7,940 bases of DNA, taken from IMG/VR virus record IMGVR_UViG_2778261527_000012; one strand, given 5' to 3'. The notes under the pieces were generated by a model that had not been told where the DNA came from, did no database searches, and saw only the letters and a list, made by a program, of their open reading frames with translations. The stretch is from a virus. Taxonomy: Duplodnaviria > Heunggongvirae > Uroviricota > Caudoviricetes. The stretch's first letter is position 1. Each line of letters begins with the position of its first letter. Below, piece after piece: positions 3,068 through 7,054 of the stretch. The translations under genes and the position numbers were made by a program.

Positions 3068-3532
3068 TTACTTTAAACACTGCTCGGTTATGTATTGCTG
3101 AGCACCTTCAAGTTGGGCCTGCATCATTACCAGTCGTTCCCGGAGGGTGAAATAATCCCGTTCAGCGGTGTCTGCCAGTCGGGGGGAGGCTGCATTATCC
3201 ACGCCGGAGGCGGTGGTGGCTTCACGCACTGACTGACAGACTGCTTTGATGTGCAACCGACGACGACCAGCGGCAACATCATCACGCAGAGCATCATTTT
3301 CAGCTTTCGCATCAGCTAACTCCTTCGTGTATTTTGCATCGAGCGCAGCAACATCACGCTGACGCATCTGCATGTCAGTAATTGCCGCGTTCGCCAGCTT
3401 CAGTTCTCTGGCATTTTTGTCGCGCTGGGCTTTGTAGGTAATGGCGTTATCACGGTAATGATTAACAGCCCATGACAGGCAGACGATGATGCAGATAACC
3501 AGAGCGGAGATAATCGCGGTTACTCTGTTCAT
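3068..3532 (-). CDS. Rz: Rz i-spanin (inner-membrane spanin subunit), 154 aa
   Basis: [102 protein letters not shown]... is near-identical to lambda Rz as I recall it: N-terminal TM anchor followed by a coiled-coil periplasmic domain. The ATG at 3532..3530 overlaps the R stop in an ATGA arrangement. The track's GTG start at 3544 is an upstream extension. Confidence 0.92.
3127..3312 (-). CDS. Rz1: Rz1 o-spanin (outer-membrane lipoprotein spanin subunit), 61 aa, embedded in Rz in the +1 frame
   Basis: [57 protein letters not shown]... has a lipoprotein signal peptide with lipobox VVGC and a proline-rich mature part, near-identical to lambda Rz1. It lies entirely inside Rz in another frame, the classic embedded spanin arrangement. 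Confidence 0.9.
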
Positions 3533-4026
3533 TGCTGACCCCACAAACAGATTTCACGCTCAATCTCACGACGAGTCATGAGACCTTTCCATTGCTTACC
3601 GCCAGCATATGTCCAGCGACGTAGCTGATCACATGCGCCTTTGATATCGCCCTGGTTTATTTTGCGAAGAAGCGTCGATGTTCTGAAATTGCCAGCACCC
3701 ACGTTGTAAACGAATGAGTAAAGAGCGCCGCGCGTTGTTTCCGGTATATCGACTTTGATGTACGGGTTAATTTGTCTGGCGACAGTGGCAAGGTCTTTAT
3801 TCAAGAGTGTTTTGCATTCTGCTTTGGTATACGTTTTACCGAGCATGATGTCTTTTCCTGTATGCCCGTGACATACAGTCCATACACCAACAATATCTTT
3901 GTATGGTATGTAGCTGACACCTTCCAGACCATCGTTACCACTTGGGCCAGTGATTAACACTGATGCTATAGCAATTGCTCCGCCACCAATAGCAGCAGCA
4001 ACGGCTTTTCGTAATGATGGAGGCAT
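3529..4026 (-). CDS. R: SAR endolysin (phage-21 R-type lysozyme with N-terminal signal-arrest-release domain), 165 aa
   Basis: The N-terminus [27 protein letters not shown] is a Gly/Ala-rich weakly hydrophobic SAR segment, followed by a T4-lysozyme-like catalytic region ([24 protein letters not shown]; E-x8-D-x5-T pattern). The sequence matches my recollection of phage 21 R almost residue for residue. Its start overlaps the S stop (TAATG at 4028..4024). Confidence 0.93.
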
Positions 4027-4241
4027 TATTCACCTCTCGCAGCCTTGCGCTTATCTTCTTTAATCTTGAAATAAAGGTTTGTCAGGTACGTCAGCAGGCC
4101 AAATACCAGACTACCCAGCACACCGATTGCAGCCCACTGTGACGGAGTTACTCTATCGAGCAACTGTAAAAACCAGTAGCCAGCACTGCCTGCGGAGGTG
4201 CCGTAGGCAATGCCTGTTGAAATTTTGTCCATGGATTTCAT
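4026..4241 (-). CDS. S: Class II pinholin, phage-21 S-type, 71 aa, with dual-start motif (antiholin from M1, holin from M4)
   Basis: [71 protein letters not shown] has two TM segments and a charged C-terminus. The Met-Lys-Ser-Met dual start (ATG 4241 and ATG 4232) is as in S21. A GGAGGTGAGG Shine-Dalgarno lies 4-13 nt upstream of ATG 4241. The track's 90-aa version (start 4298) is a spurious upstream extension. Confidence 0.9.
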
Positions 4242-4340
4242 AGCCTCACCTCCGCACGGAACGGATGGCATAGTTATTATGTGTAGGCTTTCAGACACAT
4301 CAATCAGAGCCTTAATTGATATATATGCTGGAGACGATGC

Positions 4341-4367
4341 AATATAAAAAGCTCGCCGTAGCGAGCT
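4341..4367 (-). terminator. Rho-independent terminator downstream of the second TolA-like lipoprotein gene
   Basis: Minus-strand RNA: AGCUCGC-UACG-GCGAGCU (7-bp GC-rich stem, 4-nt loop) followed by UUUUUAUAUU. On the plus strand the hairpin is followed by TAATAAAAT, so it is effectively unidirectional for minus-strand transcripts. Confidence 0.6.
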
Positions 4368-4492
4368 AATAAAATGTATTTCTCTGATATTATGTTTATT
4401 TGTATTAGCTCAGACTTGACATCACAGGTTTCGTATATAGAACATCATCAAATCTGTCAGTTTGCTATGAATGAGATATAGTAATTGAAGAG

Positions 4493-4888
4493 CTAACCTC
4501 GCATGTCAAAGCCAGATTTCTGAAAATCTCTGTAGACTTCCGGATTGTTGAAGGCCGGAAATTTGGCTTTATGAGCTGCGGACTTTATCGCTTCGCAATA
4601 GGCTTTATCACCGTTACTGGTAGATATTTTTAACGCCGTGCCATCCTGAGAGAATTCCATATGCAACCTGCATTTTTTCCCTTTCCAGTTATGCGGCTCA
4701 TCAAGTTTGGCATTAATTGCAGCTCTGATTCCCCGCGCTTGCGCCCCCCATTCATCCTGATCATCCCAGCGTCCTGAACTGCAACTACCTGTAGCAGTAG
4801 TTTTGTGGCAATCTGAAGGGTGTAAAGGTGTGCATCCCGCAACAAAACCGACCCAAAAAGTCAACATAACGATTTTCTTTAATCCCAC
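4493..4888 (-). CDS. Lipoprotein with TolA C-terminal (domain III)-like domain, 131 aa (paralog 2, more divergent)
   Basis: GTG start preceded by a GAGGAG Shine-Dalgarno. Signal peptide MGLKKIVMLTFWVGFVAGC with lipobox VAG-C. The C-terminal ~80 aa (GIRAAINAKLDEPHNWKGKKCRLHMEFSQDGTALKISTSNGDKAYCEAIKSAAHKAKFPAFNNPEVYRDFQKSGFDM) align in pattern with the other paralog and with the C-terminus of TolA as I recall it, including the two conserved Cys. There is an extra Cys-rich linker (CTPLHPSDCHKTTATGSCSS). Confidence 0.7.
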   Translation of the reverse strand: MGLKKIVMLTFWVGFVAGCTPLHPSDCHKTTATGSCSSGRWDDQDEWGAQARGIRAAINAKLDEPHNWKGKKCRLHMEFSQDGTALKISTSNGDKAYCEAIKSAAHKAKFPAFNNPEVYRDFQKSGFDMRG

Positions 4889-5038
4889 TTCTTGCTCCTC
4901 AATCCATTAAAATCTCAGCAATAGTAGTTGTTACGTCCGCCACTGGCTCAGAGCTGACTATCCGCTAAATTTAGCTCAGTGCCGTAGCTGTGTCAGAACA
5001 AACCTAAGCCGAAACCGTTTATTACAAAACAATAAATA

Positions 5039-5467
5039 TCAGGGTTTAAAATCCAGCACCCCATTTTGAAATACTTTATATACTTCCGGCGAAGGGGGGG
5101 CAGGTATATCAGCATTCTTTATCGCATTCATCGCTTCACGACATAAATCGAGGTCTCCACTTTCTCTTTTAACCTCCAGTAGAAGGCCATTCGGGGCCAT
5201 ATGCATTCTCAGTGTACACTCTTTTCCTGAATACTTACTCGCATCCCCGAACTGTTTTTCGATGGCGCTCTTGATTTGATGGGCATACAGACGGATATCC
5301 TCACTAACATCAGAAGTACGTTCAGATGAACTCACATACTGTGTCTCTATTGCTTTATCGGAGTAATATGATGTACGGTCATGATAATTTGTCGATACAG
5401 CATCAGTGCACCCGATAATAATCCCACTAATAATCAACGTAAGAATTGATGCGCTACGAAAACCCAT
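5039..5467 (-). CDS. Lipoprotein with TolA C-terminal (domain III)-like domain, 142 aa (paralog 1)
   Basis: ATG start with a GAGGAAAA Shine-Dalgarno 5 nt upstream. Signal peptide MGFRSASILTLIISGIIIGC with lipobox IIG-C. The C-terminal domain YAHQIKSAIEKQFGDASKYSGKECTLRMHMAPNGLLLEVKRESGDLDLCREAMNAIKNADIPAPPSPEVYKVFQNGVLDFKP closely parallels the E. coli TolA C-terminus as I recall it (...YAGQIKSAIESKFYDASSYAGKTCTLRIKLAPDGMLLDIKPEGGDPALCQAALAAAKLAKIPKPPSQAVYEVFKNAPLDFKP). The identity is from memory and not computed. Confidence 0.8.
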   Translation of the reverse strand: MGFRSASILTLIISGIIIGCTDAVSTNYHDRTSYYSDKAIETQYVSSSERTSDVSEDIRLYAHQIKSAIEKQFGDASKYSGKECTLRMHMAPNGLLLEVKRESGDLDLCREAMNAIKNADIPAPPSPEVYKVFQNGVLDFKP

Positions 5468-5496
5468 TTTTCCTCACATATGTCATATAGTAAAGG

Positions 5497-5526
5497 ATTA
5501 TATATACCGTTGTTTTGGACGCTCAA
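5497..5526 (-). promoter_or_regulatory. Candidate sigma70 promoter for the TolA-like lipoprotein cassette
   Basis: Minus strand: TTGAGC (plus 5526..5521), an 18-nt spacer, then TATAAT (plus 5502..5497) within a TATATATAAT run, about 30 nt upstream of the lipoprotein-1 ATG. The 18-nt spacing is slightly long; alternative registers give 16-17 nt. Confidence 0.45.
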
Positions 5527-6055
5527 ACAGCGAATCAGATCAAATAAAACGCACATTTGTTAACATTTACACAAAGTCTGCGTGGGATATTCTGAAAGAA
5601 TATCCATAATGTGGAGAGAATCTATTGAAGTGCATGGTGCCGGGTGCCTCCCGGTGAACAAAATGTTCGTGATACCTGTCGGCGACAGAAAAGGTTAATG
5701 GTATCACCCCACCGCACAGGGGGATTCACCATGCAGGAGTTTTCTTAGCAAACTCACTGCGCGCCCGGCAACTCCCAACCACATAAAATGCGGAGTTTGT
5801 GGTATTTATGCATATAACTCGCAGGAATTATCTTAAAAAACTGATGTCGATCCGGATTAAAAAGAAGCAGGTCATCATCAGATGACTGGAAAAAAGGAAA
5901 ACAAAAAATACTCATCATACAGTTTTGATTGCAGGGATGAGCCTGCTATGCACAATATGCAGAATATAAGCAAGATAAAAATATGCAGGCATATTATTTC
6001 GGATTTTGTTATTAACACAACCTTTTTAATAATCATTTGGCATACAATAAACCAG

Positions 6056-6084
6056 CCCAAAAAGAACCGCCTAAACAGGCGGTT
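6056..6084 (-). terminator. Rho-independent terminator (minus-strand transcripts)
   Basis: Minus-strand RNA: AACCGCC-UGUUUA-GGCGGUU (7-bp stem) followed by CUUUUUGGG. The plus-strand reading lacks a T-tract. Confidence 0.6.
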
Positions 6085-6404
6085 GGTCAATACAAAGGAT
6101 GCTTCGTCTTTATTATAGTAATCTGAGGCGTCGGGTGTCTTGTATCAGACAACATATTGTCCCGCTAAACAGCGAATTACAAACCACCCTGCAATGATCT
6201 CTCATCTCATTTTATATGAGTTGACGACATCAGGATAACGCATCATCAGCCCCTGCCAAGAAATATCAAAACTCCCGCCAGCAATGTGTTATCACAATAT
6301 TGTAAAAAAAACACAGCACCGAAACTATAACTGGTCTCTGTTATAATTTGGAGCAGAAAGACCAGTTGCCCAACTAGCAGCATTCTCCCCTGCTTTCCTG
6401 ACGT

Positions 6405-6431
6405 AAAAAAACCGCATTAAGCGGTTTTTTT
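6405..6431. terminator. Symmetric bidirectional intrinsic terminator about 80 nt downstream of the Q stop (candidate tR'-type terminator)
   Basis: AAAAAAACCGC-ATTAA-GCGGTTTTTTT: a CCGC/GCGG stem flanked by A7 and T7, so either strand gives a hairpin followed by a 7-U tract. Confidence 0.65.
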
Positions 6432-6511
6432 ACGATGTCCATGTCTGCAATCCGCCTCGCGATACAGCTTTGCGAAGCATAGCAAAATTGAAGCAGTTTA
6501 TACGTAAGAAA

Positions 6512-7054
6512 TCAAGCCATTTTCTCAGCAAATGATTCACGCATGGGAATATATAGGGCATACTCAGCAACAGCTAACCAATTAGCAATCCGTTTTTCGC
6601 ATGTGCTAAAACACCACTCTGGGTGTGCATCATTTAGCAATTCAGCCATTTTGCGCTTAGTCATCCCCCGCCCTTCATAGCGTTGCCGGAGAATGCAAAT
6701 CAATCCTGGATGCTCTGCCAGCACCTCACTTATGACTCGATCAATACATAACGCCTCTGCATCAGTACAATGCGCCAGCCAGCTCTTTTGCTTGCCGTTG
6801 ATCATCTCTCGCAAAAACGCTTCCAGCTCAGCTTTCTCTATTCCCGCTTTTTTCATTCTGCGCAGGGCTTCATTAATGGCTGTTTTCGTCAGTTTTTTGG
6901 ATGCCAACAACTGATTGAACATATTCCCTGACCTGCCACCGCCAATATACGACCAGCGCCCCCACATACGTAGTTTTCCCTGAATCCAGACACTTTCCAG
7001 CGTGGTGAGGCGAAGGTGTTCTCCGCTTTTTCCTGTATTCGTTGGGTAAATCAT
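6512..7054 (-). CDS. Late-gene antitermination protein Q-like, 180 aa
   Basis: It is the last gene of the nin-type operon and directly precedes the terminator and lysis region, which is the canonical Q position in lambdoid genomes. Size is right and it has a C-terminal Cys cluster (HCTDAEALC ... WCFSTCEKR) compatible with a Zn-binding element. Its start overlaps the upstream gene's stop (ATGA at 7054..7051). The call rests on position plus general resemblance, not a verified alignment; which Q family (21, 82 or lambda type) is undetermined. Confidence 0.65.
   Translation of the reverse strand: MIYPTNTGKSGEHLRLTTLESVWIQGKLRMWGRWSYIGGGRSGNMFNQLLASKKLTKTAINEALRRMKKAGIEKAELEAFLREMINGKQKSWLAHCTDAEALCIDRVISEVLAEHPGLICILRQRYEGRGMTKRKMAELLNDAHPEWCFSTCEKRIANWLAVAEYALYIPMRESFAEKMA

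Follow-up and report, generated by a model that had tools for sequence, protein, structure and literature searches.

When two accessory genes lie between the late antiterminator gene and the lysis genes of a prophage, are they expressed in the lysogen as a unit of their own, or are they read only as part of the late operon? The question is raised by IMGVR_UViG_2778261527_000012, a stretch of 7,940 nucleotides (nt) that we refer to throughout as the window. The window, whose genes are all encoded on the minus strand, covers the late-control and lysis region of a Rac/DLP12-like lambdoid prophage of Escherichia coli. Between the gene for a Q-like antiterminator and the gene for a pinholin stand two small genes, gene 1 and gene 2, each of which encodes a lipoprotein carrying domain III of TolA (TolA III); we call the pair the cassette. 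The original prediction held that the cassette is self-contained, with its own sigma70-like promoter and terminator and a further terminator that insulates it from upstream transcription, and that its lipoproteins are made in the lysogen.

Our analysis supports this prediction in part. The signals that it names are all present at the stated positions, but, judging by its position, the cassette is not self-contained during lytic growth; it is predicted to lie inside the Q-dependent late operon and to be crossed by late transcription. The reading that we favor, with a probability of roughly 0.55, treats the pair as moron-type cargo inserted between Q and the holin gene. Late transcription would cross the two genes, any transcript of them in the lysogen would have to start locally, and the two outer-membrane lipoproteins that they encode would act as decoys or modulate Tol-Pal. 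Separate expression of the pair in a dormant prophage is no more than plausible.

Position of the cassette in the late operon

The lysis genes of lambdoid phages are reached only by polymerase that has been modified by Q. In the window, three terminators (T1, T2 and T3, Table 1) all stand between the Q-like gene and the pinholin gene, and the interval from T3 to the holin contains nothing but chance-level promoter hexamers. Since the cassette sits between Q and the pinholin gene, behind the Q-linked T1, a Q-modified polymerase must cross the cassette to reach the lysis genes.

The strongest of these signals was absent from the original prediction. T1 lies 80–110 nt past the stop codon of Q and is stronger than T2; a consensus scan does not see it, and the likely reason is that pairing of its A run with its T run leaves no free T tail. 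It is kept in three other prophages (L170, L005 and L008), with a compensatory change of the stem from ACCGC/GCGGT to CCCGC/GCGGG, and the sequence that follows the Q stop codon, as far as about 6450, is shared with L170, with L005 and with the O157 prophage L008, whose Q is 76% identical. A weak full-length match to isrK (6478–6405; 21.6 bits, with a gathering score of 50) ends on the T-run of T1. The region 6403–6515 has the position and shape of a late promoter with its tR' and is probably that of a DUF1133-type Q. With its A7 and T7 arms, T1 also looks bidirectional.

The hairpin ending at 6056, which had been proposed to insulate the cassette, is real and should help against unmodified polymerase, but it is the second barrier and not the main one, given the greater strength of T1. 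A T2-like hairpin (ccaaccgccatatttggcggtttttttt) is found in the slot of L170, a prophage without the cassette; there (L170 3040–3125) it follows a motif resembling the core of STnc100. Behind gene 2, the proposed clean intrinsic terminator is present as described, with hairpin and T-run. Considered as hairpins, both proposed terminators exceed chance, and none of 200 shuffled sequences folds as stably as T3. It lies 126 nt 3' of gene 2 and 100 nt 5' of the pinholin start. The spacer between the two genes contains no terminator (fold z +0.58), and co-transcription by read-through from gene 1 is therefore expected.

Promoter-like sites and translation signals

The proposed promoter can be found where it was placed, at 5526–5497 on the minus strand, as TTGAGC and TATAAT separated by 18 nt, with 10 of 12 matches to consensus. 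Measured against a sigma70 promoter, however, the hexamer match does not exceed chance, and relatives do not conserve it. Across the window there are 17 promoter-like sites where 16.2 are expected, and a separate re-scan for sites with at least 10 of 12 matches finds 2 where 2.45 are expected. When the 153 nt 5' of gene 1 are shuffled, 6.7% of the shuffled sequences contain a site of at least 10/12. Among 38 near-identical haplotypes there are two rare variants in the −35 hexamer, none in the −10 and two in T3; no special constraint on the signals is seen, in a comparison whose power is very low. When conservation is sought across the diverged loci of genes 1 and 2, the upstream sequence is either unrelated or kept for some 45–90 nt, with no convincing hexamers.

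Three further promoter-like sites are listed in Table 1. The one directly 5' of T2 would run into that terminator within about 30 nt and yield a transcript of about 45 nt. The CTGACA hexamer of the spacer site and its flanks recur 5' of the gene-2 homologue on plasmid pO157, but the −10 hexamer does not. The site between T3 and the pinholin start, if active, would bypass all three terminators.

The translation signals of the original prediction are borne out. Gene 1 is preceded by GAGG (5475–5472), 4 nt 5' of the ATG at 5467, and gene 2 by GAGGAG (4900–4895), 6 nt 5' of the GTG at 4888. The GTG start of gene 2 is supported by homologues on plasmids and in six other genera, which use the same codon (GTG or ATG) behind the same GAGGAG. 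A tandem duplication 5' of gene 2, suspected by eye, was not confirmed by a repeat search.

Two lipoproteins with TolA domain III

We now turn to the proteins themselves. Both exceed the Pfam gathering threshold of 25 bits for PF06519: protein 1 scores 82.6 bits over profile positions 4–96 of 96, and protein 2 scores 54.6 bits over positions 10–92. Residues 55–142 of protein 1 align without a gap to residues 334–421 of E. coli TolA, with 52 of 88 identical (59%), and protein 2 has 27 residues identical to TolA III over 79 (34%). The AlphaFold2 (AF2) models consist of a disordered linker and a confident domain (pLDDT, the predicted local distance difference test, about 90). For both models the top Foldseek matches are E. 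coli TolA III, with template-modeling (TM) scores of 0.85–0.94 and root-mean-square deviations (rmsd) of 0.6–1.7 Å; protein 1 superimposes on 2X9A_B at 0.6 Å and protein 2 on 3QDP at 1.1 Å. The elements follow the order of the TolA III fold (helix, helix, strand, strand, helix, helix, strand), and the cysteine pair is invariant in the alignment.

At the other end, each protein has a basic n-region, a hydrophobic core and a lipobox. We read the lipoboxes directly off the sequences as [LVI][ASTVI][GAS]C, where the residue after the cysteine is not aspartate. Protein 1 has IIGC at residues 17–20 (MGFRSASILTLIISGIIIGC/T) and protein 2 has VAGC at residues 16–19 (MGLKKIVMLTFWVGFVAGC/T), in both cases followed by threonine; the lipobox cysteine is invariant in both families. 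By the +2 rule, we infer that both lipoproteins are sorted to the outer membrane. A disordered linker of 25–35 residues joins the lipobox signal to TolA III.

The third β-strand of TolA (residues 415–420) binds the N1 domain of the phage protein g3p, colicin N and the N-terminus of TolB by strand addition, and D418 and K420 are critical (PMC4339652, PMC7391070). In protein 1 the sequence of this edge strand, LDFKP, is that of TolA itself; in protein 2 it is FDMRG. Both proteins lack domains I and II of TolA, so that no coupling to TolQR is expected. Despite the RefSeq name, the proteins are not orthologues of TolA proper, the protein that the models PRK09510 and TIGR02794 describe: the PRK09510 scores (107.8 and 53.7) fall below the cut-off of 213 and match only profile positions 293–386 of 387, the N-termini are those of lipoproteins, and the full-length architecture is missing.

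Existing annotation obscures this. The RefSeq Prokaryotic Genome Annotation Pipeline (PGAP) calls gene 1 a truncated tolA pseudogene in L001 (6902–7162) and L007 (6188–6448), and in the same two loci starts gene 2 at an internal ATG (124 residues); both calls hide the signal peptide and the lipobox. PHROG 5772 holds both proteins under the label 'unknown function'.

Exchange of the Q-to-holin slot

The pair is accessory cargo, as the original prediction had it: it is absent from L170 and L005 on the same backbone, and it occupies a known variable slot. In sister prophages that share the backbone of the window, the slot from 6450 to 4252 is replaced as a whole. L170 and L005/L006 share the flanks, on the left to 6450–6453 and on the right from 4252 or 3532. 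The slot of L170 contains tRNA-Thr, tRNA-Gly and several terminators, and homology returns 11 nt 5' of the essD ATG; that of L005 and L006 contains a 190-residue gene, a lambda-type holin and another lysozyme, and homology returns at 3532. Elsewhere the slot carries a porin gene (CFT073), TerB, DUF3927 and a SASA esterase (O157), a methylase and tRNAs (L004), or genes for lipocalin, YbgA and one helix-turn-helix (HTH) protein (L169).

The original prediction asked whether promoter, genes and terminator are present or absent as a block, and the comparison of prophages yields other boundaries for the unit that moves. A near-identical cassette (99%) is found behind two unrelated Q types, and 160 IMG/VR loci show on the upstream side either no break or one at precisely 5658. 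On the other side, all copies that no contig end interrupts extend through the pinholin gene to at least 4039–4025, while other essD alleles are homologous only from 4268–4252. The junctions are thus at 5658 and at about 4268–4252, the same holin is always carried, and the exchanged unit runs from about 5658 to 4025, comprising half of a small RNA (sRNA) element, the two genes, T3 and the holin. The G+C content of the cassette is 41.6%, compared with 49.1% in the NinB-Q region and 49.1% in the holin-Rz region. The cargo character, the lower G+C content and a good terminator before the holin support the reading as an accessory cassette; for the promoter, the self-containment and the moving unit, support is missing or incomplete.

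In one IMG/VR prophage (L055 3506–4699; L095 1728–2921), about 1.19 kb of inserted sequence separates gene 1 from gene 2, with window bases 4961–4968 present on both sides of it.

Separate histories of the two genes

Relatives of gene 1 (65–100% identity) occur essentially in E. coli and Shigella, always between a Q gene of DUF1133 or lambda type and a holin gene, and the family occurs without gene 2 (L004, L195–L202). One relative, P0023, is a chimera whose N-terminal half resembles the 66% subfamily and whose C-terminal domain is identical to that of the window protein, which indicates recombination inside gene 1.

Relatives of gene 2 (78–99% identity) are found on about 600 plasmids of E. 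coli and Shigella. In the two plasmids that we inspected (IncI1/B/O plasmid L203, 4965–5396; pO157, L003, 3995–4426), the homologue lies about 68 nt downstream of the relaxase gene nikB, which suggests co-transcription with the relaxase operon. Lone chromosomal copies occur at varied sites in Citrobacter, Enterobacter, Klebsiella, Raoultella, Kluyvera, Pantoea and other genera, and about 45 nt of the 5' region, together with the start codon, are conserved across genera. The view of the pair as one cassette is only partly upheld: the genes are adjacent with no terminator between them, but each has a history of its own, and the pair may not form a single operon.

Small TolA-III proteins of a third family, with 35% identity to gene 2, are encoded on about 300 mostly Klebsiella plasmids (IncF). 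In the one that we inspected (K. pneumoniae IncF plasmid L204, 3812–4246), the gene adjoins a gene for a thioredoxin-fold protein. A prophage of CFT073 (L171 5491–5817) encodes a 108-residue 'TonB family protein' beside an iss/bor lipoprotein gene, which is possibly the TonB counterpart of the capture of a TolA domain.

The STnc100-like element

Directly upstream of gene 1 lies a full-length match to the sRNA STnc100 (Table 1). Its 3' hairpin (5605–5585, z −4.1) has no U tail, the consensus UUUUU being replaced by a gap and CAC, and the −35-like TTGACA of good STnc100 copies is degraded to TTGGGA. The recombination junction with mEp460-type prophages, at 5658, falls inside the element: mEp460 has a different STnc100 variant at the same place, and the sequences are identical from 5658 on. 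With no U tail, an STnc100-like element in this position may give the cassette a further means of being transcribed independently of Q.

In Stx2 phages, stx2B is followed by STnc100 at a distance of 75 nt (PMC12370729). The gene-1 homologue of L004 and L195 is followed, about 100 nt on, by a good STnc100 copy whose terminator is intact, and it is itself preceded by tRNA genes (tRNA-Ile/Arg, annotated in L004). Given that the positions of STnc100 and the tRNAs are those of Stx2 phages, the gene-1 family occupies the position of stx. Five tandem STnc100 copies fill the late region in L004.

Other features of the window

Along the minus strand the gene order is NinB, YbcO, Q-like, gene 1 and gene 2, pinholin, signal-arrest-release (SAR) endolysin, Rz/Rz1, trkG and ynaK (Table 1). 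The Q-like protein matches PHROG 753, 'anti-termination protein Q-like', at 2e-79. We set aside a relationship to the solved Q21 structure, for which there is just a faint N-terminal motif match (E 0.27). Between Q and gene 1 lies a non-coding stretch of 1 kb, and a search of the window for tRNA genes found none. The region 3068–4241 is a lysis cassette of the phage 21 type. A GTG at 4298 was considered as the holin start and dropped in favor of the dual-start ATG at 4241, in agreement with RefSeq essD and with the homology boundary at 4268–4252. The lysis genes are followed, as in Rac, by the cargo genes trkG and ynaK, the latter ParB-like.

Table 1. Features of the window discussed in the text, with their positions in the 7,940-nt stretch.
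Feature	Position	Strand	Evidence
NinB/DUF1367	7940-7341	minus	
YbcO/DUF1364	7341-7051	minus	
Q-like late antiterminator gene, DUF1133 family	6512-7054	minus	Pfam DUF1133 2.5e-107; weak Phage_antitermQ
Candidate late promoter, Q-adjacent, TTGATT-17-TTCAAT	6487-6515	minus	8/12; under promoter-scan threshold
Terminator T1, A7-CCGC-TTAAT-GCGG-T7	6403-6433	minus	dG −19.7 kcal/mol, z −5.8
Promoter-like site directly 5' of T2, AAGACA-18-TATAAT	6112-6141	minus	10/12; chance level
Terminator T2, stem 6084-6065 + CTTTTT	6056-6084	minus	8 pairs, 5 GC; z −2.0
STnc100-like sRNA element	5578-5764	minus	Rfam RF02076, 86.6 bits (gathering 47), E 4.6e-19, model 1-206
Gene 1, 142-residue lipoprotein with TolA domain III	5039-5467	minus	Pfam TolA 2.4e-23
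Weak promoter-like site, gene 1-gene 2 spacer, CTGACA-17-TAAATT	4968-4996	minus	9/12
Gene 2, 131-residue lipoprotein with TolA domain III, GTG start	4493-4888	minus	Pfam TolA 1.3e-14
Terminator T3, stem 4367-4350 + TTTTTAT	4341-4367	minus	7 pairs; dG −13 kcal/mol, z −3.5
Promoter-like site between T3 and pinholin start, TTGATG-16-CATAAT	4276-4303	minus	9/12; chance level
S21-type pinholin essD, dual start MKSM	4026-4241	minus	Pfam Phage_holin_2_1 4.5e-35; RefSeq annotates essD
SAR endolysin	4026-3529	minus	N-terminal SAR-like hydrophobic segment
Rz	3544-3068	minus	
Rz1, embedded in Rz	3312-3127	minus	

Of 5426 complete E. coli genomes, 449 cover at least 80% of the stretch 6200–4300 and 1371 contain parts of it. 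With cassette matches in about a quarter of these genomes, TolA-III lipoproteins are common. An identical copy of the stretch occurs in a Shigella flexneri chromosome (L172), and phage mEp460_ev081 carries the cassette with another upstream region.

Proposed mechanism and alternatives

The reading that we favor would work as follows. During lytic growth, Q-modified polymerase from the Q-adjacent start would read through T1, T2, the cassette and T3 into the genes for pinholin, SAR endolysin and spanin, and because of this read-through late synthesis of the lipoproteins would be assured. Unmodified polymerase, in the lysogen, would be halted at T1 and T2; a cassette transcript would have to start locally, either at 5526–5497 or at the STnc100-like element, and T3 would stop it 5' of the holin. 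Both lipoproteins would be tethered to the inner face of the outer membrane, presenting the edge strand by which TolB, g3p and colicin N bind TolA, and this motor-less TolA III would compete with the real TolA for ligands emerging beneath the outer membrane. At a low, lysogenic level, the proteins might serve as an unenergized decoy against Tol-dependent (group A) colicins and filamentous phages, or might modulate Tol-Pal; at a high, late level, they could sequester TolB and so weaken the outer membrane. The choice between these two regimes turns on the promoter question. Of these roles, that of decoys for TolA ligands seems the most likely.

Several observations weigh against this reading. 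The local promoter at 5526–5497 is at chance level and unconserved: in L200, whose gene 1 has 91% amino acid identity and whose upstream region is homologous, the −10 is TGTAAT and fails the scan, and in L195 and L004 (66% identity) the upstream sequence is unrelated and no site of at least 9/12 adjoins the gene. Even the cassette-free L170 has a terminator just 5' of the holin, so that capping a lysogenic transcript need not be the purpose of T3. The putative Q-adjacent late promoter and Q-binding site are deduced from conservation only, the best hexamers matching at 8/12, and the decoy role is argued from homology, from the lipobox reading and from the +2 rule. A PADLOC search for defense families gave no match, and the literature that we searched holds no expression data for any carrier strain.

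The same observations lend themselves to other accounts. It is possible, if on balance unlikely, that the pair is cargo of the late phase with no working promoter of its own, transcribed solely within the Q-antiterminated operon; T2 and T3 would then be two of many terminators that keep the lysis genes silent in lysogens, and lipoproteins made late would titrate TolB and loosen the outer membrane, aiding lysis, vesicle release or exclusion during the burst. The chance-level, unconserved promoter fits this account, as do the place of the cassette directly 5' of the pinholin gene, its constant linkage to that gene, and the terminators found throughout the slot of L170, including the one just before its holin; moreover, loss of the TolA-TolB contact gives leaky cells (PMC4339652). 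It is harder to reconcile with lone gene-2 homologues on chromosomes and plasmids with neither Q nor a late promoter, which suggest that the gene-2 family is expressed alone, and with a 10/12 site having a perfect TATAAT at the right distance from gene 1. Rather improbable, in our judgment, is that the mRNA instead starts at a promoter of the STnc100-like element (5764–5578), with the element serving as a structured 5' leader, not as a distinct sRNA, and the 5526–5497 site irrelevant. The match to STnc100 is full-length, its terminal hairpin is without the consensus U run, an STnc100 variant is kept directly 5' of the cassette in both Q contexts, and STnc100 RNA has been detected in vesicle preparations of Shiga toxin-producing E. 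coli (PMC12370729); on the other hand, its −35-like hexamer is degraded here, and the hairpin may still pause or partly stop polymerase.

The distribution of the two genes raises the question of whether the pair is one insert at all. Gene 1 may be a gene of lambdoid late regions, and gene 2 a traveling orphan with its own signals that landed behind it; we regard two independent single-gene inserts in tandem as unlikely, and this view is compatible with the one we favor, not opposed to it. In its support, the gene-1 family stands alone between Q and holin, the gene-2 family stands alone after nikB (IncI1/B/O plasmids and pO157) and at varied chromosomal sites with its 5' region and start codon conserved across genera, and a weak promoter-like site (4996–4968) precedes gene 2; that site, however, is only 9/12 with a −10 unshared by the plasmid copy, and the missing terminator between the genes leads us to expect read-through. 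Least probable by far is that the genes are functionless, decaying fragments of a captured tolA, as is implied by the PGAP pseudogene calls for gene 1 in L001 and L007 ('incomplete, missing N-terminus'). Both open reading frames are intact, with start codon, Shine-Dalgarno site, signal peptide and lipobox; relatives at 65–100% (gene 1) and 78–99% (gene 2) identity retain the protein length, the cysteines of the lipobox and the disulfide, and the core residues; and the AF2 models are confident over the whole domain. The intact frame and the conservation across the family contradict the description of gene 1 as a pseudogene.

Implications

Considered as a transcription unit, the cassette is one more cargo insert in the best-known variable slot of lambdoid phages, and little changes. 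If the proteins are decoys for colicins and filamentous phages, they would form a new class of exclusion factor based on mimicry. We would go further only tentatively, with the proposal that mobile elements of the Enterobacteriaceae repeatedly carry outer-membrane-tethered TolA III as motor-less decoys, which would capture the TolA-binding segments of group A colicins and of filamentous-phage g3p on their emergence beneath the outer membrane; copies of TolA III are carried by lambdoid prophages, at the position of stx, by IncI plasmids and pO157, and by IncF plasmids of Klebsiella. If this is true, the decoys would give their hosts, above all the hosts of pilus-bearing plasmids, tolerance with no tol defect, and the TonB-family gene of CFT073 hints at the same trick against TonB-dependent invaders. 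TolA-III lipoproteins are misleadingly annotated as 'TolA' or as pseudogenes, and the literature that we searched holds no study of them: a search on TolA-like lipoproteins of prophages and plasmids, on the accession numbers and on mEp460 returned nothing relevant.

Comparison with known systems

The morons of lambdoid phages, in the sense of Juhala and Hendrix, include bor and lom of lambda, stx1 and stx2, and the nmpC/lc porin gene of DLP12 and PA-2. Like these, the cassette consists of extra genes in a syntenic phage backbone, with a G+C content below that of its flanks and a terminator after it, and it occupies the Q-to-holin slot in which stx, porin genes and tRNAs are also found. As with stx, its place within the late transcript should bring about its expression once Q has acted as well. 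It differs in that its putative promoter is unconserved, in that the exchanged unit exceeds promoter-to-terminator and takes in the holin, and in that it has two paralogous genes with separate histories.

The Q-adjacent block resembles the PR'-6S RNA-tR' region of lambda and StxS/IsrK, in that the sequence right after Q is conserved and is closed, about 100 nt on, by a strong terminator. Unlike in lambda, the Q of the window is of the DUF1133 type, not of the lambda, 82 or 21 type, and the promoter hexamers are poor; unlike IsrK itself, the isrK match is far under the gathering score.

With TolA III of E. coli (residues 334–421; 1TOL, 2X9A, 3QDP/3QDR, 1S62), the two proteins share the complete domain and both disulfide cysteines, and the third β-strand is identical in protein 1 and conservative in protein 2. 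In place of the transmembrane domain I and the long helical domain II of TolA, they have a lipoprotein signal and a short disordered linker.

Finally, Cor (phi80/N15), Llp (T5), TraT (F) and Bor/Iss are small lipobox lipoproteins encoded by accessory genes of temperate phages and conjugative plasmids, and they block the entry of competitors by masking an outer-membrane receptor. The proteins of the window are likewise small lipobox lipoproteins on accessory genes. They show no sequence relationship to that group, however, and their proposed action would be not the masking of a receptor but the mimicry of a periplasmic import hub.

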